Below are positions 339 to 39,807 of a stretch of 64,000 nt of DNA, one piece after another; within the stretch, counting starts at the first letter, position 1; each line of letters starts with the position of its first letter. This stretch comes from an uncultured delta proteobacterium (GTDB lineage: Bacteria > Desulfobacterota > WTBG01 > CAIYCZ01). The position numbers and the translations under genes are program-made. Location of the stretch: positions 112,096 through 176,095 of the forward strand of contig CAWDOY010000047.1 in NCBI GenBank assembly GCA_963803975.1, written 5' to 3'. The notes under the pieces are model-generated. The model searched no databases, was not told where the DNA came from, and worked only from the letters and a program-made list of their open reading frames with translations.

Positions 339-416
<78 letters not shown>

Positions 417-5137: not shown

Positions 5138-6153
5138 TTAATCTAATTTTCTTCCGTCAGCCTGTAAGGCTGCAACTGCTTTTTTAATGTCTTCTTCTGC
5201 ACCACCCCTGATTTTAGGTTTTGCATAGCATCGAAGGGAGATATGAACATTTCCCGGATCTTCAATTAAATCTGCTGTAACAATATGCATGGACAGTGCT
5301 TTTCCATTATATTTTTTTGTCCCAATAAAATATGTATTATAATAGGTTTTTTTATCTTCTTTACATTCAATGTCATTCTGTTTTGCCCAGTCATTTAATA
5401 ATGAGGCTGCCTTGTCAAGATTTGCCTTAACACGCAAACGGGTAAAATAGCATCTTTTATCGCTTTGTGTATTTGTCCATGGCCTTATTGATAATTTGTT
5501 CTTATTTTTATCAGTAAGATTTCCGGGCTGTAATGACTCCCAGAAGCTTCTATATTTTTTTACCTCTTTTTCTTGTAGCGGCGTAAGGGAGAGGATCTTT
5601 GTACGTATGTCATTTGCGAATGCCTCTACCCTTTCAGGAATAAGTGATTCCCACATGTCAAGCCCTGTCCATCCCACTTTATCTGCAGGCATGGTTTTTC
5701 CAAGGATCCATATCAGCCTTGCATCATTTGAATTGAGATAACGGTTTACCTGGCGCCCGCCAAATGCCCCGAGTGTTATTGGTTTTAATTTGGGGAATTT
5801 TTCAAGTGTATCAAAGAAATAACTTCTCCCGCTCGAAAGATGAGGCGGTTTCCCGGGCATGTATATGATTATGGTTTCATCAATTTCACCGCAGGTAAGA
5901 AAGTATGCAATTTCCTTTTTTGTAAGTTCATCATGGAACCTTTCAATAAATTTATATGTTGATTTATGCGGTTTTTCCCATCTTGTGTATCCGCCGATTA
6001 TTACATAGTCATAGGGCTCTACAGTTAAAACTTGATTATACATTTTTACATCCACATGATTTTCAAAGCCGATCAGAGCTTTTAACCAGTATGCAACATC
6101 AGCTGCTGAGCCGTATTGGGTTTCATAAGCTATTAGTCCTTTTTTTCTACCAT
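5138..6153 (-). CDS. Flavodoxin-like-domain protein with a C-terminal domain of unknown function. It has a frameshift in an A7 run near the start.
   Basis: True N-terminus is MVEKKGLIAYETQYGSAADVAYWLKALIG with an AAGGAGGAG RBS. Phosphate-loop-like T..GS, DYVIIGGYTRWEKP and KEIAYFLTCG motifs of the flavodoxin fold. The listed ORF 5138..6055 joins after a 1-nt shift in gaaaaaaagg. Confidence 0.55.
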
Positions 6154-30150: not shown

Positions 30151-31815
30151 GTGAGTAAAAAATTATTTGTAACAGCTCTACTGCTAAATGCTTTTGTTTT
30201 TATGTGTTGTCATGCGGCATTCGCCAGCGAGTTGCGTATTGCTATCTTCCCGTTTTCCGTCCACACCCAGGATGACATTTCCTATATCCGGGACGGCATA
30301 ACATCGCTGCTGCCCTCACGGATTGCAGTAAGCGGCAGGCTTTCAGTTATTGACAGCTTTCTGATCCGCAGTGAGCTGGGCAAACTTCCGGCAGAGCATC
30401 CGCTCACGGCAGATGTGGCGCTCGGGAAAAAACTGAACGCGGATTATATCCTCATCGGCAGCATCACCAAGATCGGCGCCAATGTGAGCCTGGATACGCG
30501 CCTGGTCAATACTGCCTCTCCTGATGATGTCACACCGTTTTTCATCCAGAGCATCGGCTTAAATGACATGCTTCCCCAGCTCACTTCCTTTGGCGCCCGG
30601 GTTCGGCAGAAAATCCTCGGCGGCGGCCCTGAAACAGATGCCGCTGCGGCGCAGCAAGCGCCGGCGCGGCAAAAACTGCGGGCTCCGGCGATGAACCAGG
30701 CCCCTGACGAAACGCTTGAAGCACCCCTTGAACCTGAATACCAGACCGTGGTGCAGCCGCGGGCGGAAAAAAGGCCCCCGCTGTTTGACGCCGCGCCCTT
30801 TTATACGCTGGATATTGATGGTGAATCACTGAGCTGTATGACCGCGGCAGATGTTGACGGCGACGGCGCGAAGGAACTGCTGCTGTCCGCTGCGCACAGA
30901 ATTATTGTTTATAAATGGGCTGAAGGCGCCCTTAAGCAGAGCGGGGAAATAAAAACCGATATCGGAGAGCACATTGTCCACATAGATACGGCGGATACCA
31001 ACAAAAACGGGCGGGATGAAATTTTCGTCACAAGCTTTGAGAAGAGCGCTCCCAATTCGTTTGTGCTTGAAGCGGCAGAGGCAGGAGCATACTCCCGGCT
31101 CGCAAAGTCCCAGCGCTGGTTTTTCAGGATATACCAGCCTCCGGGAAAACGGCTCATGATAATGGGACAACATGCCGGCGAGACCAGTCCCTTTGGCAAT
31201 GTGATCTACACTTTTTCCTGGAAAAACGGGGTACTGGAAGCGCGCAATGAATTCCTGATTCCGGAGTCCCTGCAGCTTTACAGCTTTCTGCAGGCAGACC
31301 TCGAAGGCGACGGCAGTCTTGAATATATTGCGTTTGACAAGGGGGTGTTCAGCTATCAGTATCAGCTGACCATTTTTTCCGGCCTGGGCAGGATGCGCTG
31401 GCGCGACCAGCACCTTAAACTGGGCGGCGAAGTTAATTATTTTACCAAACGCGTCTACGCGAACGATATTGAACAGAAAGAGTTCCTGCCCATGCGCATC
31501 CTGTGTGATGATTACAACCAGGACGGCAGGCTCGACTTCATCGCCGGCCGCAACTCCAAAAAAGGCAATCTTCTCAGTAAGAGGATGAGCGGCTACAACC
31601 AGGGAGAAGTATGCTGCCTCAACTGGGACGGATATGATCTTGCCCAAAACTGGTCAAGCGGACTGCTGGGCGGTTACGTAACTGATTACGGGGTGTTCGA
31701 TTTTGACGGGGATGGGCAGAAAGAGATTTTTGTTTTATCTGTTTCAGAATCAGGAATTTTGAGCAAGGTAAAAAACCGGCTGTCCGTCTTCAAGCAGGCA
31801 GCAGCAGCGCATTAA
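30151..31815 (+). CDS. Secreted FG-GAP / VCBS-like repeat protein with an N-terminal FlgO/CsgG/TolB-N-like domain
   Basis: GTG start with an AAAAGGAG RBS. Signal peptide. N-terminal domain ELRIAIFPFSVHT...ADYILIGSITKIG. C-terminal DxDGDG calcium-binding-like repeats (DVDGDGAKE, DLEGDGSLE, DYNQDGRLD, DFDGDGQKE). Confidence 0.65.
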   Translation: MSKKLFVTALLLNAFVFMCCHAAFASELRIAIFPFSVHTQDDISYIRDGITSLLPSRIAVSGRLSVIDSFLIRSELGKLPAEHPLTADVALGKKLNADYILIGSITKIGANVSLDTRLVNTASPDDVTPFFIQSIGLNDMLPQLTSFGARVRQKILGGGPETDAAAAQQAPARQKLRAPAMNQAPDETLEAPLEPEYQTVVQPRAEKRPPLFDAAPFYTLDIDGESLSCMTAADVDGDGAKELLLSAAHRIIVYKWAEGALKQSGEIKTDIGEHIVHIDTADTNKNGRDEIFVTSFEKSAPNSFVLEAAEAGAYSRLAKSQRWFFRIYQPPGKRLMIMGQHAGETSPFGNVIYTFSWKNGVLEARNEFLIPESLQLYSFLQADLEGDGSLEYIAFDKGVFSYQYQLTIFSGLGRMRWRDQHLKLGGEVNYFTKRVYANDIEQKEFLPMRILCDDYNQDGRLDFIAGRNSKKGNLLSKRMSGYNQGEVCCLNWDGYDLAQNWSSGLLGGYVTDYGVFDFDGDGQKEIFVLSVSESGILSKVKNRLSVFKQAAAAH

Positions 31816-31895: not shown

Positions 31896-32052
31896 ACTAT
31901 CAGGTTATTGAAAAAGTAGTTTCTCCCAGGCTGGTCAAAAACATCCAGATGCAAGGCGCGCGAAATCAAGAGGAATGAGGCGTACTTTACAGTACGTCGC
32001 AATGACGAAGGATGAGCGCAACGAAGCAGATGGGCGTTTTTCAACAGCCTGT
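31896..32052. repeat. MITE-like element, copy 1 (~157 bp) with terminal inverted repeats. Copy 2 at 38136-38335.
   Basis: ACTATCAGGT...CAGCCTGATAG-type TIRs. Conserved core TTGAAAAAGT..CCCAGGCTGGTCAAAAACAT.CAGATGCAAGGCGCGCGAAATC..GAGGAATGAGGCGTACTT.AC.GTACGTCGCAATGAC...GCAGATGGG.GTTTTTCAACAGCCTG. Confidence 0.7.
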
Positions 32053-32601
32053 TAGGTGCTGGTCAGTACCTGATTCAGTATTCCCTCGGGGAAGCTTAAA
32101 AACCGCGCTTTTTCCACCTCAATTTTAATAATATCCATGGGAGTTCGGATTGCCTTGAGGTTCATCTGCTTCAGGTCCTGCCGCTCCTCCAGATTCATGA
32201 TTCTCCTGGCCTCTTCGTATAACGGACCATCCTGCGGCTTTATAATGACCGCTTTCCCCCATACCTGCAGGCCGGTCACAGACTGAAACCCGGTGTATTC
32301 ACCCACGATGCTCAGTGATACGTTCGGGTTGTCCCTGATATTTTTTACCTTGCCGCCTCCCTCGGTAAGAATATACAGGGTAAGCCCCCGGCTCCGGTAG
32401 CGCACCGGCGTTGAGCGGGGTATATTCTGCGCGCAGGTGGCCAGGGTGCAGATTTTCTGCTCCTGCAGAAAGCTTATTATCCGTTCCTTTAATTCCTCCT
32501 GCGGTAAGCCGTTTGATTTTTCCCTTCAGTAAGGTTACAAAATCATTTTCAAGCTTTTCATTGTAATCGCTTTCCATGTTTTCCAGGCGTTCATCACTCA
32601 T
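32052..32601 (-). CDS. Pyridoxamine 5'-phosphate oxidase-like FMN-binding protein (general stress protein 26 family), frameshifted
   Basis: N-terminal part MSDERLENMESDYNEKLENDFVTLLKGK and C-terminal part VRYRSRGLTLYILTEGGGKVKNIRDNPNVSLSIV... lie in different frames. Confidence 0.55.
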
Positions 32602-32744
32602 GGCTACAATCCATCCTAACCCGGACAAGCCGGAACCAAGGTTAACCGCAAAGATAAAAAAGAACAAAGAAGATTGAATTGGAACTCAGGAACTCACAAA
32701 GGTAAAAACAAATCCTGATTTCTTGAGTTCCAGATGCGGCTCAG

Positions 32745-32999
32745 TTATTCCTGGTACTCCTCAAACTCTGCGTCAGGTTCTGCAAGCCCGTCACCGGAAC
32801 CAAATTCCATGGCCTGCACCATTTCCGGGTATGAGGATTTAATGCCTGCAGGAAAACATTCATCGGTGTCAGTTACCGGCTGATCATCAGCTTCCGGATC
32901 CTGCATAACCGTGTCGATATAATTTTCTGCCCGCTGCAGCATTTCGTGCGAAAGAGCTGCCGTGGCACCGTCAGCATCTTTTCCTTTTGCCACTTGCAT
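32745..32999 (-). CDS. Small acidic hypothetical protein overlapping the 3' end of parA
   Basis: MQVAKGKDADGATAALSHEMLQRAENYIDTVMQDPEADDQPVTDTDE..., ~84 aa. 29-nt out-of-frame overlap with the upstream ATPase gene. Confidence 0.3.
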   Translation of the reverse strand: MQVAKGKDADGATAALSHEMLQRAENYIDTVMQDPEADDQPVTDTDECFPAGIKSSYPEMVQAMEFGSGDGLAEPDAEFEEYQE

Positions 33000-33753
33000 G
33001 CAATACTTCTTCCGCCAGGCGCTCATAGTCACAGTGCCCGTTTGACCGCTTGTCATACATGCCCACCGGCAGGCCGTAATCAACCGTTTCCCGAAGCCTG
33101 ATGTTGTAGCGGACTATGGTATTAAACACATTCTCGCCGAATTCCTCGGTAACCTTTTCCAGAACCCGGCGCGAGTATTTAGTCCTGCTGTCAAACATGG
33201 TGACGAGCGCGCGGGACACAATATCATGACCCAGCTTATCCTTAAGCAGCATTATTATTTCTATCAGCTTGGCCACCCCGCGCAGCGAAAAGAGGCTCAT
33301 ATCAATGGGGATAATGACCTCCTGGCTTACCCGGAGCGCATTAAAGCAGAGCAGCCCGATGCTGGGCGGGCAATCAATAATCAGGAAATCATAGGGGGTT
33401 TTAAGAGCGGCAATCGCCTCCAGCAGCCGGTCTTCCCTGCCGTCCCTGCCGGCCAGCTCCTGCTCAACGGCACTCAGTATGACACTGGACGGTGCCAGGC
33501 TGAAGCGTTCATTTATCGCAACCGCAATGGTATCGATCCCGGCGTTTTCGTCTTTATGCGGGCTCAACACGTCATACATCGTGCCCTCAAGTTCTGACGA
33601 CTTTCTCTTCAGACCCATGGTAGCGTGTGCCTGCGGGTCGCAATCAATCAGCAGCACCCGCTGGTTTCTGAGAGACAGGGAATAAGCGAGGTTGATGGCC
33701 GTTGTGGTCTTGCCGCACCCGCCTTTTTGATTTGCTACAGCAATTATGCGCAT
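32971..33753 (-). CDS. ParA/MinD-family P-loop ATPase (orphan Soj-like)
   Basis: Deviant Walker A KGGCGKTT, DCDPQ, IIDCPP. Confidence 0.8.
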   Translation of the reverse strand: MRIIAVANQKGGCGKTTTAINLAYSLSLRNQRVLLIDCDPQAHATMGLKRKSSELEGTMYDVLSPHKDENAGIDTIAVAINERFSLAPSSVILSAVEQELAGRDGREDRLLEAIAALKTPYDFLIIDCPPSIGLLCFNALRVSQEVIIPIDMSLFSLRGVAKLIEIIMLLKDKLGHDIVSRALVTMFDSRTKYSRRVLEKVTEEFGENVFNTIVRYNIRLRETVDYGLPVGMYDKRSNGHCDYERLAEEVLHASGKRKRC

Positions 33754-34014
33754 GAAAGCTCTCCTTGGTTTTGTTTTAAAATTATCACCACAGAGGTCAC
33801 AAAAAAAATCATTATTACGTATTTAAAAAAGAACACAGAAATCCTCTCTGCATTTTCTGCAATCTCGGCTGTCCTTATTTATTTATATCAAAAGTAAAAT
33901 TTTCGTCAAGGGAAAAATACTATATATAGTGGCCAAAACAAAAAATAACCACTATTTATGGGGCACATCAAGGATAAGGCCAGGAAAGGTGGTTGTAGCA
34001 GCAACGGGAAAAAA

Positions 34015-34782
34015 CTATGAGGAATGGTTTTTATTCTTCAGCACCACTAACATTATAAGAGAGACAACGATAAAAGCTAAAGCCAGCACCTGGGAAACGG
34101 CAAAGGTCTCCAGTATGAGATAGCCGCGGGGGTCTCCGCGAAAATATTCTATAATGAGCCGGGAGAATGAGTAGAAAAAAATCCACAGCAGGGCCAGCTG
34201 GCCGTCAAAGGTTTTTCTGCTGCTCCAGGCCCACAGCAGCAGAAACGTGGCAAGCGAAGCAAACGATGAATAAAGCTGCGTCGGGTGCAGGGCAACGCCG
34301 ATCCGGGCCAGGCTCTGCGGGTCGGTAAAAGTGACTGCCCAGGGATAGCTGCACTCCCGCCCGTAGCAGCAGCCCGCAAAAAAACAGCCGATGCGGCCGA
34401 AAAAATCACCCAGGGCAAGGGCAGGCGCAAACAGGTCAAAGGTCTTCCAGACCGCCATTTGATGGCGCTTCATATATACAACGCCGGCAATAAAGGAGAG
34501 AATAAACCCGCCAAAGAAGGTCAGCCCGCCCTGCCAGACTTTTAAAATATCCAGCGGATTATGCCGGTAGGAATCAAGGTTCGTCAGCACATAAAAAAGC
34601 CGCGCGCCGATGATTGCGGCAAGTATTATGTAAAACGCAAGGTCAAGGATGGGCTGAGGGTCAAGCCCCTGCTGCCGCGCTTCCCTCAGAGCAAAGCCCA
34701 GTCCGGCAAGAAAGCCCATGGCTACAAACAGGCCGTAGGCCTTTATGGAAAAGTAGGGGGTCTCAAAAATGATCGGGTGCAT
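34015..34782 (-). CDS. lgt: Prolipoprotein diacylglyceryl transferase
   Basis: Lgt signature with the conserved Y..HPTQLY motif and G-rich TM segments. Starts 10 nt after the lspA stop. Confidence 0.85.
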   Translation of the reverse strand: MHPIIFETPYFSIKAYGLFVAMGFLAGLGFALREARQQGLDPQPILDLAFYIILAAIIGARLFYVLTNLDSYRHNPLDILKVWQGGLTFFGGFILSFIAGVVYMKRHQMAVWKTFDLFAPALALGDFFGRIGCFFAGCCYGRECSYPWAVTFTDPQSLARIGVALHPTQLYSSFASLATFLLLWAWSSRKTFDGQLALLWIFFYSFSRLIIEYFRGDPRGYLILETFAVSQVLALAFIVVSLIMLVVLKNKNHSS

Positions 34783-34792
34783 TGCTTGAGTT

Positions 34793-35296
34793 TTATCCTG
34801 CAGCGTGACGCTGTTTTTTGTTTTTCGTGTCAAGCAGCATATCAAGGGCAAGCAGGCAGATGCCAATCGTTATGGCAGAGTCTGCAACATTAAAGGCAGG
34901 CCAGTGAAATGAAGAATACCAGTGGAGATCTATGAAGTCAACAACCGCCCCAAAGCGAAACCGGTCAATCAGGTTTCCGGCAGCACCTCCCAGCAGCAGG
35001 GAAAAGCAGAGCAGTTGCAGGCGCGAGCCGTCTTTTATCTGCGAGAGAAAATAGATAATGATAAAGACCGCCACGCCGGAAATCAGAAGCAGCATGGGGA
35101 CCCGGTAGCGGCTTCCAGCCTCGGTTAAAAGGCCGAACGCGATGCCCGGATTCCTGATATGAACGATGTGAAAAAAATTGCGGCTGACTTCTATCTGATG
35201 ATGGAGCGGCAGGGTCCGGCAGATCGCAAGCTTGGTCAGCTGGTCCAGTGCCACGACTGCCACTATGATACTTATGATAAACAGATACTTTTTCAT
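34793..35296 (-). CDS. lspA: Lipoprotein signal peptidase II
   Basis: NPGIAFG, GGAAGNLIDR, FNVADSAI motifs. Overlaps the ileS stop by 4 nt. Confidence 0.85.
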   Translation of the reverse strand: MKKYLFIISIIVAVVALDQLTKLAICRTLPLHHQIEVSRNFFHIVHIRNPGIAFGLLTEAGSRYRVPMLLLISGVAVFIIIYFLSQIKDGSRLQLLCFSLLLGGAAGNLIDRFRFGAVVDFIDLHWYSSFHWPAFNVADSAITIGICLLALDMLLDTKNKKQRHAAG

Positions 35297-38100
35297 CTGC
35301 CGGTCCCGTCAAGTGATGCGAGAACCGCTGCGCACCGCTCGCAGGCTGCAGGGTGTGCTGCGTGCGCGCCAACGCGGGGAGAATATTTCCAGCAGCGACC
35401 GCACTTTTCCCCGGCAGCAGCAGTAATCTCTACCTCGCCATCAGCAACCAGGTTTTCAAAGGAAGCATCGCCGCCGCCTTCTTTTTGTTTGAGGGTGACC
35501 TGGGAAACGATAAAAAGATCGGGGAGTTCCTGCTCGTATTCCTGCAGCCGGAGGTACAGCTTTTCCTGAACACGCAGCGCCACGCATGCCTCAAGGGCAT
35601 TGCCGATCTTTTTTGCGGCGCGCGCCTCCTCCAGACTTTTGAGCACCCGGTCCCGCACCTGCAGCAGAATACTCCAGCGCTCTGCTATCCCACGGTTATT
35701 ATAGTGCTCCGGCAGCACGGAAAAAGACGCAAGATGCACGCTCTCTGCCCTGCCGGCCTGATGCGGAAGATACTTCCAGGCCTCATCAGCAGTAAAGGAG
35801 AGTATCGGCGAGCAGAGCCGCAGCAGGCTTTCAAGCACCATATGGAGCACGGTCTGGGCAGCACGCCGCGACGGGTCAGCGGGGGCTGAGCAGTAGAGGC
35901 GGTCCTTTAAAATATCGAGATACACCGCGCTCATATCATTAATGCAGAAGTTGCTGATGCTGTGGTACACGGTATGAAACTCATATGCCCGGTACGCTTT
36001 AAGCACCCGGGCGGCAAGCGCCTGCAGCTGATGCAGTGCCCACTGGTCAAGCTCCGCAAGGTTTTCATACCGGACGCTGTGCACCGCCGGGTCAAAGTCA
36101 CAGAGATTGCCGAGCAGGAACCGGCAGGTGTTTCTGATTTTTCGATACCCTTCAGAAAGCCGCTTCAGAATGTCGGGCGATATGCGCATGTCCTCACGGT
36201 AGTTTTCCGAGGCTACCCACAGGCGCAGCACTTCTGCGCCATACTGCTTGATGACCTCCTCCGGGGAGATCACGTTTCCTTTGGACTTGGCCATCTTTTC
36301 GCCTTTGCCATCAACCACAAACCCGTGGGTGAGCACCGCGCGATAGGGCGCGCGGCCCCTGGTGCCGACACTTACCAGAAGTGAGCTGTGGAACCAGCCC
36401 CGGTGCTGGTCGCTTCCTTCCAGGTACAGGTCAGCGGGGCTGCCAAGCTGGGGCCTCTTTTCAAGAACCGCTGCATGGCTCACGCCTGAGTCAAACCACA
36501 CGTCAAGGATATCAGTCTCTTTTCTGAACGCACCTGCCCCGCACTGGCCGCACTTCACGCCCGGCGGGAGCAGCTCGGATGCTTCACGGGAAAACCAGAC
36601 GTCACTGCCGTGCTCATCAAAGAGATCTGCCACATGGTTGATGACCGGGACTTCAAGCAGCACCGCGTTGCAGTCGCTGCAGTAAAAGGCCACAATCGGC
36701 ACACCCCAAACCCGCTGCCGTGATATACACCAGTCAGGACGGTTCTCGATCATGCCGTACATGCGCTCCCGCCCCCACGGCGGAATCCAGTCCACCTGCT
36801 GAACGCAGTCAAGCGCCTTTTTCCGCAGGTCATTTTTTTCCATGGATATGAACCACTGCTCGGTGGCGCGAAACACCACCGGGTTTTTGCAGCGCCAGCA
36901 GTGGGGATAGGAGTGGACAATCTCCTCCTCTTTCAGCAGCGCGCCCGCTTCCAGCAGTTTTTTATTAACCGCGGCGTTGGCGTCAAACACAAACTGGCCG
37001 CCGAAAAACTCAACCTCGGGGACAAAGCGGCCGGCATCATCCACCGGCGCGTAAATATCCAGATTATATTTCAGCCCGCTCTCATAGTCTTCCTGTCCGT
37101 GTCCCGGAGCTGTGTGGACACAGCCGGTGCCCGCATCCAGGGTGACATGGGAGCCGAGGATCAGCAGCGACTCCCGCCCGTAGAGCGGATGGCGGCACTT
37201 CATTCCCTCAAGGACGGCTGCGGAAAAAGTTTCTTTAACTGCAAAGTTTTCGATGCCCAGCGTGAGCATGGTCCGCTGCAGCAGGCCCTCGGCAACGATA
37301 AAAACTTCGTCCCCGGCCTGTACGGCAACATAATCAAAGTCCGGGTGCAGGCAAATGGCCAGGTTTGCCGGTATGGTCCATGGCGTTGTCGTCCAGATAA
37401 CGACCGAGACCTTCTCCCCTTTCAGTAACGGCAGCTTGCTGCTGATATCTGAAATGAGCGGAAACTTTACATAGATCGACGGTGAGCGGTGTTCCTGGTA
37501 TTCAACTTCAGCCTCAGCCAGCGCCGTCTGGCAGGACGCGCACCACTGAATGGGCTTCTTCCGTTTATAGACAGAGCCGGCCTGCACAAATTTGCCGAAC
37601 TCCCTGACAATAGTGGCCGAGTAATCCGCGCTCATGGTGAGATACGGGTCAGCCCATTCCCCGAGCACGCCGAGGCGCTTAAATTCCTCGCGCTGTATGC
37701 TCACGAACCGGGCGGCATATTCTCTGCACAGCTTCCGCACTTCCACCTTGGGGATAGAGCCCTTCTTTTTTCCGAGCTCCTTTTCCACCTGCAGCTCGAT
37801 GGGCAGGCCGTGACAGTCCCATCCCGGCACATACCTGGTCTGGTACCCGTCCATGGTCTTTGATTTTATGACAATATCTTTCAGGATTTTATTCAGAGCA
37901 GTGCCGATATGAATATGCCCGTTTGCATAGGGCGGACCGTCATGAAGGATAAATTTTCTGCTGCTGTTATTGAGCGCAATAATTTTTTCATAGAGCCCCG
38001 TTGCTTCCCACTTTTTCAGCATCTCCGGCTCCTTGACTGCAAGGCTTGCCTTCATCGGGAAATCAGTTTTGGGCAGATTTATGGTATCCTTATAATCCAT
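35293..38100 (-). CDS. ileS: Isoleucine--tRNA ligase
   Basis: 935 aa. HIGH-type PYANGHIHIGTALNKI, KMSKS (KMAKSKGN), CP1 editing domain, C-terminal zinc-finger cysteines. Confidence 0.9.
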   Translation of the reverse strand: MDYKDTINLPKTDFPMKASLAVKEPEMLKKWEATGLYEKIIALNNSSRKFILHDGPPYANGHIHIGTALNKILKDIVIKSKTMDGYQTRYVPGWDCHGLPIELQVEKELGKKKGSIPKVEVRKLCREYAARFVSIQREEFKRLGVLGEWADPYLTMSADYSATIVREFGKFVQAGSVYKRKKPIQWCASCQTALAEAEVEYQEHRSPSIYVKFPLISDISSKLPLLKGEKVSVVIWTTTPWTIPANLAICLHPDFDYVAVQAGDEVFIVAEGLLQRTMLTLGIENFAVKETFSAAVLEGMKCRHPLYGRESLLILGSHVTLDAGTGCVHTAPGHGQEDYESGLKYNLDIYAPVDDAGRFVPEVEFFGGQFVFDANAAVNKKLLEAGALLKEEEIVHSYPHCWRCKNPVVFRATEQWFISMEKNDLRKKALDCVQQVDWIPPWGRERMYGMIENRPDWCISRQRVWGVPIVAFYCSDCNAVLLEVPVINHVADLFDEHGSDVWFSREASELLPPGVKCGQCGAGAFRKETDILDVWFDSGVSHAAVLEKRPQLGSPADLYLEGSDQHRGWFHSSLLVSVGTRGRAPYRAVLTHGFVVDGKGEKMAKSKGNVISPEEVIKQYGAEVLRLWVASENYREDMRISPDILKRLSEGYRKIRNTCRFLLGNLCDFDPAVHSVRYENLAELDQWALHQLQALAARVLKAYRAYEFHTVYHSISNFCINDMSAVYLDILKDRLYCSAPADPSRRAAQTVLHMVLESLLRLCSPILSFTADEAWKYLPHQAGRAESVHLASFSVLPEHYNNRGIAERWSILLQVRDRVLKSLEEARAAKKIGNALEACVALRVQEKLYLRLQEYEQELPDLFIVSQVTLKQKEGGGDASFENLVADGEVEITAAAGEKCGRCWKYSPRVGAHAAHPAACERCAAVLASLDGTGR

Positions 38101-38135
38101 TCAATTCTTCCTCCGTAGCAGGATATATCCATGAC

Positions 38136-38335
38136 AGTACTATCAGGTAGTTGAAAAAGTGGTTTTATCCCAGGCTGGTCAAAAACATTCAGATGCAAGG
38201 CGCGCGAAATCTCGAGGAATGAGGCGTACTTCACGGTACGTCGCAATGACACCCCTCTTCATCCCCCCTTGCCAAGGGGGGACACGGGGGGTAGAAGATA
38301 ACGCAGCAGATGGGTGTTTTTCAACAGCCTGATAG
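38136..38335. repeat. MITE-like element, copy 2 (~200 bp), carrying an extra internal hairpin insertion
   Basis: Same TIRs and core as 31896-32052. A ~50-nt insert contains the hairpin cccccttgccaagggggg. Confidence 0.7.
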
Positions 38336-38487
38336 CAGGCCGTAAAAATTACCATATACGGGCACAAAGTCAAGGGAATAGCGTGCAGAAATGGTTCTGC
38401 CAATAATCCTGGACATCTCATTTAAATTATATTATTAGTTTTTCTGATAACAAATAGTAATATAAATACAGCTATATATTTGAAGCA

Positions 38488-38662
38488 ATGCGCCGTCTAA
38501 TCTGTCATTCTACTTTTATTTTTACTTTAGGTACTCTGCCAGTGGTCCGTGAGTAGCGGAGAAGATACTACCAGGCCATGGGCAGAGTTTACCCGCTGCC
38601 CATGGCTTTTTTTATAATTGAAAAAGCCATGGAACCAGATCGTTCATGGCTTTTTTTTATTT
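38488..38662 (+). promoter_or_regulatory. Candidate transcription-attenuation leader upstream of the DAHP synthase gene: a 22-codon leader ORF plus two overlapping terminator hairpins
   Basis: Leader ORF MRRLICHSTFIFTLGTLPVVRE (38488-38556). Hairpin 1 is CCATGGGCAG-n10-CTGCCCATGG followed by T7 (38576-38613). Hairpin 2 is AAAAAGCCATGG-n12-CATGGC followed by T8 (38621-38658). The 3' arm plus T-run of hairpin 1 is exactly complementary to the 5' arm of hairpin 2, giving mutually exclusive structures. Confidence 0.4.
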
Positions 38663-38776
38663 ACGTAACGGTTTCAAACCCAAGCACTCAGAGAAAAACT
38701 CTATATACAATAATTTCTCAGAGTCCTGTGGTTATAGTTTGACAATACTTTGTTTGAGCAGAAGGAGGATACACAG

Positions 38777-39807
38777 ATGATCATAGTTATGAAGGCCAAA
38801 GCATCCGAGAAAGAACTGCAGGAAGTGCTCAACACCATTAAGGAGTTCGGCTACCAGCCGCACCCGATCTATGGAACAGAACGAACCGTAATCGGTGCGG
38901 TGGGAAGCGAGCGGGGCAAGGAAAAACTGCAGGCGCTGGAAATGCTTCCCGGGGTGGAAAAGGTGGTTCCCATCCTCCAGCCCTACAAGCTTGCGAGCCG
39001 TGAGGTAAAACCCGAGAAGTCGGTCATCGCCATCAGCGATACCGTGCAGATCGGCGGCGATGAGGTGGTGGTGATTGCCGGCCCGTGTTCCATAGAAAAC
39101 GAGCAGCAGATCATTGAAACTGCACGTGGCGGTAAAGGATGCCGGGGCAACCATGCTGCGCGGCGGAGCATTCAAACCCCGCACCTCACCCTTACAGCTT
39201 CCAGGGCCTTGAGGGAGAAGGGCTTGTGCTGCTGGATAAGGCGCGGCAGCTTACCGGGCTTCCCGTGGTCACGGAAATAATGAATCTCGAAGACATAGAG
39301 CTGATTTCAAATCACGCGGATATCCTGCAGGTGGGAGCGCGCAATGTTCAGAACTTTGCCCTGCTCAAAGCCCTCGGAAAATGCAGCAAGCCGATCCTGT
39401 TGAAGCGCGGCATGATGACCACTATTGAAGAGTTCCTGATGTCAGCGGAGTATATCCTGTCGGAAGGCAACCAACAGGTCATTCTGTGCGAGCGCGGGAT
39501 ACGGACATTTGAGACCGCCACCCGCAACACCCTTGACCTGAGCAGCATCCCGGTGCTGCGGGAGCGCACCCATCTCCCGGTCATTGTCGACCCCAGCCAT
39601 GGGACCGGCCACTGGAAGCTCGTTGCCCCCATGTCGTTTGCGGCAATTGCCGCAGGTGCTGATGGCCTGATGATAGAAGTGCATCCCCATCCTGATCATG
39701 CCATGAGTGACGGTGTCCAGTCGCTCAAGCCCGGTAAATTTGCAGAGATGATGCAGCGGCTGGTTCCGTTTGTAAAGGCAGCGGGAAGAACGATACGGGA
39801 AGGGTGA
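38777..39807 (+). CDS. aroF: 3-deoxy-7-phosphoheptulonate (DAHP) synthase, type I-beta with N-terminal ferredoxin-like regulatory domain. One frameshift.
   Basis: GAAGGAGGA RBS. N-terminal ACT-like domain [26 protein letters not shown]. Catalytic KPRTSPYSFQGLGE..., [20 protein letters not shown]. The join near 39130-39180 needs a 1-nt shift. Confidence 0.8.

Follow-up and report, generated by a model that had tools for sequence, protein, structure and literature searches.

Two intergenic repeats of an uncultured delta proteobacterium are very probably copies of a widespread miniature inverted-repeat transposable element with a covarying hairpin core

The window that we analyzed, 64,000 nucleotides of contig CAWDOY010000047.1 (positions 112,096 to 176,095; assembly GCA_963803975.1) from an uncultured delta proteobacterium of the Desulfobacterota, carries two related intergenic repeats. 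Copy 1 separates two convergent genes, an FG-GAP gene (30151-31815, plus strand) and one that is PNPOx-like (32052-32405, minus strand). Copy 2 precedes by 36-40 nt the start codon of ileS, a 935-amino-acid open reading frame (ORF) that runs from 38100 to 35293 on the minus strand and is the first gene of an ileS-lspA-lgt operon, in the region between ileS and a divergent DAHP synthase gene. A first-pass annotation had placed both copies just 3′ of convergent gene ends, which describes copy 1, but copy 2 sits in the ileS 5′ leader. The same annotation had offered two identities for the repeats, a miniature inverted-repeat transposable element (MITE) or a small structured RNA family; we present here why both are very probably copies of a non-autonomous DNA transposon, a MITE of about 150 bp.

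Counting their target-site duplications, copy 1 spans 31897-32055 and copy 2 spans 38140-38335; the two share about 90% identity and align as three blocks of 87, 36 and 28 nt with 93%, 92% and 89% identity. They share a 20-mer that is found at no third place in the window, where chance would give 0.01 occurrences. Both contain the inner pair CAGGCTGGTCAAAAAC / GTTTTTCAACAGCCTG as well as the terminal inverted sequences, and neither encodes a transposase; the original description of a two-copy repeat with inverted termini stands in these respects, except that the outer 4 nt of the termini it gave, ACTATCAGG...CCTGATAG, take in decayed duplications (CTAT...TTAG and CTAT...ATAG). The element proper runs from CAGG to CCTG over about 150 bp, with terminal inverted repeats (TIRs) of 15-16 bp, the left one CAGGYTGYTGAAAAA and the right one its complement. 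We drew its bounds in the two copies (Table 1) because the duplication lies directly outside CAGG...CCTG; counted with duplications, the family has a modal length of 155-159 nt. With nhmmer, copy 1 scores 164.6 bits, against 34.9 on the opposite strand. The plus strand of copy 1 folds with −52.2 kcal/mol (z = −4.4), and for either strand of both copies the fold is more stable than that of shuffled controls (z from −3.0 to −5.6).

Copy 2 carries a private segment that had been described as an insertion of some 50 nt forming a perfect hairpin. The extra segment and its GC hairpin, CCCCCCTT-GCC-AAGGGGGG with a perfect stem of 8-9 bp at 38263-38281, are indeed there, but 49 nt stand in place of 13 nt, a net gain of 36 nt and no clean insertion. 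The segment falls at model position 109, the main family hot-spot for internal insertions (17/71), and its sole relative is the orthologous copy in loci L305 and L306. We considered a nested repeat family as the source of the GC hairpin and rejected it, as other copies were not found.

An iterated nhmmer profile search over about 2 Mb of fetched loci recovered 302 distinct elements, all oriented unambiguously (best strand at least 32 bits above the opposite strand). A two-block pattern matched at least 120 times in a collection of species-representative genomes and at least 120 times in a metagenome collection. Among the matches listed, carriers in the Thermodesulfobacteriota are Desulfatibacillaceae, Syntrophaceae/Smithella, Desulfuromonadales and others, joined by Syntrophia, NC10/Methylomirabilota, Rokubacteria, Acidobacteria (Ca. 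Sulfotelmatobacter), Nitrospirae, Peptococcaceae (Firmicutes), Omnitrophota, Bacteroidota and Bdellovibrio; the family ranges over at least eight bacterial phyla and one phage. A diverged relative from viral contig scans (L027) exposed the conserved blocks, which are CAGGCTG-N-TCAAAAA, AGATGCAAGGCGCG, GCGTACTT...GTACG and GCAGAT-N4-GTTTTTCAACAGCCTG. Beyond the copy by which a locus was retrieved, further copies occur about once per 21-33 kb, a density matched by the two copies in the 64-kb window, and extrapolation from locus density gives roughly 100-200 copies per genome. The family thus comprises hundreds of copies across many genomes, and the possibility, raised at the outset, that only the two window copies exist falls away. 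Copies are 79-88% identical within a genome (maximum 95%) versus 70% between genomes, identities that mark lineage-specific subfamilies without a recent burst.

The flanks of these elements bear the mark of transposition. Of 73 full-length copies, 26 have the same 4-mer in direct orientation on both sides of CAGG...CCTG, whereas shuffled pairings of these 4-mers averaged 5.1 such matches and peaked at 14 in 10,000 trials. The matched 4-mers (CTAA/CTAA eight times, TTAG/TTAG five times, CTAG four times, ATAG twice, and others) are mostly non-palindromic, reverse-complement flanks supply only two non-palindromic pairs, and no duplications of 5-8 bp flank the full-length copies. At both ends the flank consensus is C/T-T-A-A/G (YTAR), matched strictly by 30-31 of the 73 4-mers, and IS5 generates a 4-bp target-site duplication of the sequence 5′-YTAR-3′ (PMC5009759). 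Target-site duplication, proposed earlier as a check on the MITE reading, is statistically clear at 4 bp. Across 77 copies the left end CAGGYTGYTGAAAAA and the right end pair over 15 bp, with 88% of cells complementary and two co-varying positions (covariation of outer left TIR with right end 0.113 versus 0.083). Further traits of a MITE are present too: the element is short (MITEs being under about 300 bp) and non-coding, its short ORFs being unconserved across the family with frames broken by indels, and it has TIRs, a duplication of fixed length, many dispersed copies and insertion polymorphism. The 4-bp YTAR duplication is in addition a trait of the IS5 family.

Filled and empty orthologous sites were found for both window copies and for a further pair of loci, of which L272 is filled and L187 precisely empty (CCTG-CTAG-TTTCC), with the TAG stop of the neighboring gene at the same place in both. 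For copy 1 we recovered orthologous ParA-PNPOx-FG-GAP loci (L300 and L301-L303). L300 is empty, its PNPOx gene ending ...CAT-TAA-AAGG and running straight into a terminator-like hairpin; the target of copy 1 was therefore T-TAA, a YTAR site. L301-L303 hold only a 23-nt right-end remnant after the same PNPOx stop codon (Table 1), a deletion having taken the rest of the element plus spacer. The window PNPOx-like protein ends ...LTST and its remnant-site orthologue ...LTIT, with equal length, and the insertion of copy 1 therefore struck the stop codon, which the duplication regenerated. Copy 2, with the same internal GC hairpin, is present in L305 and L306 (ileS 86% identical in nucleotides), where the L305 orthologue retains CTAA / CTAT, a 3-of-4 match; it is absent at the ileS site of L304, L309, L310 and L311 (ileS 96-98% identical in nucleotides) and of L307. 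It was lost, or never gained, in the closest relatives. The site is polymorphic among close relatives, and ileS can dispense with the element. Together, the YTAR duplication and the filled, empty and remnant orthologous sites support the MITE reading of the first-pass annotation, which copy number and the lack of a matching Rfam family also bear out.

Because YTAR contains TAA or TAG, many insertions fall exactly on stop codons. Insertion at a stop preceded by a pyrimidine is non-disruptive, with the duplication regenerating the stop and the gene surviving; copy 1 entered at the stop of the PNPOx-like gene, which kept its stop via the duplication. Genes stop exactly in the duplication in 23 of 81 cases reading into the 3′ end and in 10 of 58 reading into the 5′ end (p = 0.16 between ends), counts that use the single longest ORF per flank because the crude greedy ORF caller behind our orientation and context counts miscalls some genes, including both window neighbors. 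At 9 nt into the element a TGA ends a second frame, and some C-termini run four codons into the element. The neighbors of elements are unrelated housekeeping genes, and no gene is consistently linked to them. We rejected a recoding signal linked to stop codons (SECIS- or PYLIS-like), as all three stops occur at both ends and on both strands and YTAR explains the coincidence.

At ileS, copy 2 lies between a conserved promoter-like block (Table 1) and the ileS ribosome-binding site (RBS), GGAGGAAGAATTGAATG, which follows the element. The block, TATTCCCTTGACTTT..GTATATG.TAA.TTTTACGG, is kept in five lineages (the window, L304, L305, L307 and L308) that span 76-99% IleRS identity, and we infer that it is the likely ileS promoter; a simple promoter scan does not call the block, whose −10 hexamer matches at 3/6 positions, and the two hits of that scan lie upstream of the element or at its edge. 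Copy 2 may have landed a few bases downstream of the likely start of ileS transcription, and would be carried in the ileS 5′ untranslated region (UTR) in antisense. Between the window and L305, copy 2 is 87% identical and the alignable upstream spacer 76%. The distant relatives of the window ileS are labelled Thermodesulfobacteriota or Deltaproteobacteria. An ileS T-box or attenuator was rejected as an identity for copy 2: Rfam gives no T-box hit, the closest relatives lack the element in their leaders, and it occurs at hundreds of unrelated loci.

Within the element, the inner repeat is a third copy of the terminal motif and pairs with the right end, closing an imperfect hairpin of about 125 nt. 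In an alignment of 77 non-redundant canonical copies (A2), RNAalifold predicts 34 pairs, 22 of them with double changes that preserve pairing, such as columns 71-133 (GC 38, CG 21, GU 7, AU 4, UA 3) and 87-116 (AU 50, GC 25). Standard pairs fill 95.4% of the cells (shuffled mean 85.6%, slid registers 34-42%), 219 cells are changed on both sides (53.6 and 22-55), and the covariation score is 0.314 (0.138 and 0.03-0.08); none of 500 shuffles reaches the observed value for pairing, double changes or covariation. The three motif copies shift together by lineage, CAGG becoming CAGC in Desulfatibacillaceae and GTT becoming GCT in NC10, a pattern that a co-evolving transposase would explain as well as pairing does. 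Across phyla the unpaired stretches hardly vary (AGATGCAAGG, GAGGAATGAGG, CAATGACGAAGG and GCAGATGG, with GA opposite GA twice), the hairpin tip, GGCGTAC-loop-GTACGYC, is invariant, and on the plus strand G-U pairs stand to A-C mismatches as 146:38. Internal insertions of at least 8 nt, found in 47 of 231 elements, are clustered, mainly at model positions 105-109, the site of the copy 2 segment, and several elements show matched expansions on both arms of the hairpin.

The hairpin core also changes slowly once inserted. Private within-genome mutations affect 1.8% per site of the conserved columns and 6.9% per site of the variable ones (p = 6e-20), and in four orthologous pairs 11 of 222 conserved positions differ and 54 of 259 variable ones (p = 2e-7), a change 4-5-fold less at positions conserved in the family. 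This points to selection on inserted copies, with the caveat that gene conversion, undersampled subfamilies and the small number of pairs may contribute, and suggests that the core may be a constrained RNA, single-stranded DNA (ssDNA) or protein-binding module. Such a core would serve transposition, or a role tolerated by the host as bidirectional terminator or mRNA-end stabilizer. That the core of about 125 nt is a functional module riding the transposon and kept by selection after insertion, whether as protein-bound RNA or ssDNA or as terminator or stabilizer, is a reading that we offer tentatively, as less likely than not. A conserved small peptide in the core (MQGARN...) was rejected, since indels between subfamilies break the frame, and so was a site for IHF, as on sequence reading the nearest stretch in copy 1 (AATCAA) lacks the TTR half of the consensus.

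What the core does for its neighbors could be more specific: it may act mainly as a bidirectional intrinsic terminator or mRNA 3′-end stabilizer that insulates convergent genes, like REP/BIME or ERIC sequences. Its layout, TCAAAAAC-hairpin-GTTTTTCA (A5-hairpin-T5), reads the same on both strands, elements often abut stop codons, and by the crude ORF caller they lie in convergent regions more often than in divergent ones (61 versus 24, p = 7e-5). That excess is, however, also expected from purifying selection against promoter disruption. A terminator scan calls no site in either copy on either strand, the stem beside the T-run is broken by mismatches, and an interrupted hairpin of about 90 nt falls outside the canonical definition. 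Moreover, copy 2 stands between the promoter-like block and the RBS of an essential gene; because ileS transcription must pass through it, copy 2 cannot be an efficient terminator in that orientation. We regard a mainly terminating or stabilizing role as unlikely.

The structured RNA that was the second identity offered at the outset, read here as a small RNA, a cis-regulatory element or a 3′-UTR element and not primarily a transposon, would account for the strong covariation (34 pairs, 22 double changes), the purine-rich internal loops with their two GA/GA tandem mismatches, the G-U excess on one strand, the fold z-scores of −3 to −5.6, the helix expansions of variable length at defined sites and the constraint on conserved columns of orthologous copies. 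The 4-bp duplications and the filled and empty sites nevertheless show transposition, no gene family is consistently associated, and Rfam gives no match. Orientation relative to neighbors is weakly biased (46 co-directional elements in sense and 72 in antisense by the crude ORF caller, p = 0.02), and the element is dispensable at ileS in relatives of 96-98% identity. As an exclusive rival a non-coding RNA family is improbable; it may survive as a layer added to the MITE, whose interior does evolve in a structure-preserving way.

Two other modes of transposition can be set against the ends of the element. A MITE of the IS630/Tc1-mariner type, which would enter at CTAG and duplicate TA, would explain why the ends look like C-TA-n-CAGG...CCTG-n-TA-G, and the TIR CAGGCTGGTCAAAAA presumably resembles the Tc1 end CAGTGCTGGCCAAAAAG; but whole 4-mers match, outer and inner bases included (CTAA/CTAA, TTAG/TTAG; 26 versus 5), which leaves this type very improbable. 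Least likely is a REP/BIME-like element moved by RAYT (Y1, IS200/IS605-type) or another system acting on ssDNA hairpins, such as integron attC: the family is hairpin-forming, high-copy and intergenic, and its strand-asymmetric tolerance of G-T suits recognition of a single-stranded hairpin, but its 4-bp target duplication is foreign to IS200/IS605-type transposition, which leaves none, the element has about 150 bp, true TIRs and no GTAG head, unlike the palindromes of 20-40 nt with such a head in RAYT systems, and no RAYT or integrase neighbors were seen at the elements. Integron attC itself was rejected, as the ends lack RYYYAAC/GTTRRRY (R″/R′) boxes; elements spaced 1-2 kb apart at some loci of NC10 reflect high copy density.

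Because insertion is at YTAR with a 4-bp duplication, the MITE would depend for its movement on a DDE transposase that acts in trans and chooses targets as IS5 does, and we infer that this transposase would belong to the IS5 family or resemble it. IS5-group ends start with GG, and other IS (insertion sequence) families also give 4-bp duplications, so an IS5 assignment by target alone is provisional. In the 2 Mb of MITE-rich loci, inverted pairs of the terminal motif 0.6-4 kb apart were neighboring MITEs or noise only, split elements had inserts of 250 nt or less, and the recurrent multi-copy ORFs near elements were housekeeping genes, with no transposase neighbor.

Several observations weigh against reading the repeats as a MITE with a constrained core. 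No autonomous element or transposase with these termini was found in about 2 Mb of MITE-rich loci, BLAST of the element against plasmid and phage collections gave no match, and no near-identical copies were seen (maximum 95%), hence no sign of current activity. The duplications of the window copies themselves are decayed (CTAT/TTAG, CTAT/ATAG), and complementarity to the right end is lower for the outer left TIR (88%) than for the inner repeat (97-98%). Conserved unpaired loops and constraint after insertion are unexpected for a purely selfish MITE; that constraint in situ comes from only four pairs of orthologues, in which gene conversion among copies could produce the same signal, and the G-U excess lies in about eight pairs and may be inherited within subfamilies.

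Among known systems, the IS5 family and its derived MITEs share with the present family the 4-bp YTAR duplication, short TIRs and a bias to non-coding DNA, but here the TIR begins CAGG, and no transposase or full-length IS with these termini was found in the 2 Mb. ERIC/IRU elements are imperfect palindromes of about 127 bp in Enterobacteriaceae and Vibrio, transcribed intergenic sequences with a long hairpin and defined internal insertion sites; they are not known to have a transposase or a clear YTAR duplication of 4 bp, and their range is limited to related families within a single class. They are like the present family in size, in a hairpin that crosses genera and in internal insertion sites, but share no sequence similarity with it, and the present family spans at least eight phyla. 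Neisseria has the Correia elements (CREE/NEMIS), MITEs of about 100-155 bp in hundreds of copies, with TIRs, whose transcripts fold into hairpins and which often lie near gene ends, where they can affect expression; they have a TA (2 bp) duplication, 26-bp TIRs and an IHF site, and are genus-restricted. Size, TIRs, copy number and hairpin are alike in the two families, but the present duplication is 4 bp and the TTR part of the IHF site is missing.

Rfam RNA families also have conserved covarying hairpins with internal loops, but none matches: the element has no Rfam family at gathering threshold or at E ≤ 10, which also answers the earlier question of whether it belongs to an annotated non-coding RNA family, and the only sub-threshold hit in the region is that of the copy 2 GC hairpin to whalefall-1 (16.8 bits, gathering threshold 37). 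In the searchable literature, strings of the element match unrelated primers only, and no paper there ties MITEs to the carrier taxa. With no Rfam family, no literature sequence match and no plasmid or phage match, the MITE family appears undescribed; it is a new family within the well-known MITE class, not a new kind of system.

Some further arrangements of the element were seen in the fetched loci. The diverged element of L027 (L027:450-597, IMG/VR UViG 3300006192_000272) is flanked by genes for a phage tail protein and a tail-collar fibre, directly upstream of the RBS of the latter, in a genuine phage tail-fibre module; the family may have passed between phyla by way of phages. At L287:2155-2511, L177:1315-1614, L103:6699-7026 and L112:651-1021, groups of two or three elements, whole or partial, stand head-to-tail and 10-40 nt apart, as tandem insertions or local duplications of the MITE. 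A unit of about 39 nt (...CCGTGAGCCTGTCGAAC...) is common to insertions inside elements at L071:~5499-5715, L071 from ~6279 on and L262:~1836, and is apparently another small repeat family that sits inside the MITE in genomes of NC10 and its relatives.

Genes around the two window copies offer observations of their own. The PNPOx-like gene is split into overlapping ORFs (32299-32667 and 32052-32405, minus strand), and its homologues are single proteins of about 182 amino acids; the DAHP synthase gene is likewise split (38750-39280 and 39139-39807, plus strand; homologues single, about 340 amino acids), also in the 99% relative L304 and not in L305, L309 or L310. These splits could be real frameshifts or long-read assembly errors. 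The ileS start called in L308 is an ATG within the promoter-like block, which lengthens the protein by 20 amino acids and is probably a miscall. Upstream of the DAHP synthase gene, a block at 38480-38700 (plus strand) is highly conserved in L304, L305, L309 and L310 and has two terminator-like hairpins with T-runs, GCCATGGGCAGAG...CTGCCCATGGC-T7 and AAAAAGCCATGGAACC...CATGGC-T8 (plus strand); it could be an attenuator or leader of this aromatic amino-acid gene, and its Rfam hits are sub-threshold only (VrrA, 36.4 bits against a gathering threshold of 50; trpB motif, 32 bits against 59).

Table 1. Positions of the two elements, their parts and associated features. Positions are those of the window unless a locus is named.
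Feature	Position	Strand	Remark
Copy 1, left target-site duplication remnant CTAT	31897-31900	+	Decayed relative to right TTAG; TA core alone common
Copy 1, element proper, CAGG...CCTG	31901-32051	+	151 bp; nhmmer, fold, row 1 of alignment A2
Copy 1, left TIR	31901-31916	+	
Copy 1, inner repeat	31927-31942	+	Same motif as TIR
Copy 1, long imperfect hairpin	31927-32051	+	
Copy 1, right TIR	32036-32051	+	
Copy 1, right target-site duplication TTAG	32052-32055	+	Complement CTAA gives the TAA stop of the PNPOx-like gene
Copy 2, left target-site duplication remnant CTAT	38140-38143	+	Family-wide 4-bp duplication
Copy 2, element proper	38144-38331	+	188 bp; inside ileS 5′ leader, antisense to ileS
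Copy 2, left TIR	38144-38159	+	
Copy 2, inner repeat	38171-38186	+	
Copy 2, private 49-nt segment	38251-38299	+	Copy 1/copy 2 alignment; replaces 13 nt of the 3′ arm
Copy 2, right TIR	38316-38331	+	
Copy 2, right target-site duplication remnant ATAG	38332-38335	+	
ileS promoter-like block TTGACT, 16 nt, TAATTT	38346-38373	-	Directly upstream of copy 2; context, outside element
Remnant site, PNPOx/FG-GAP	L301:2007-2033		Convergent genes just 23 nt apart
Remnant site, PNPOx/FG-GAP	L302:3547-3573		Convergent genes just 23 nt apart
Remnant site, PNPOx/FG-GAP	L303:1980-2006		Convergent genes just 23 nt apart
tRNA gene	340-413	+	Sole Rfam hit at gathering level in the window, 62.2 bits

MITEs themselves are well known, and this family is unusually widespread for one. 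It accounts for many spurious small ORFs and altered gene ends in annotations of metagenome-assembled genomes, and the element is a marker for strain-level polymorphism. Its YTAR preference is also a clean example from nature of a target choice that lets an element insert safely at stop codons. Being conserved and covarying, with apparent constraint after insertion, the core is well suited to asking whether functional RNA or DNA modules are distributed by bacterial MITEs: if the core is functional, a MITE would have carried one prefabricated RNA element, regulatory or structural, into intergenic regions of anaerobes from at least eight phyla, with phages as part of the route.

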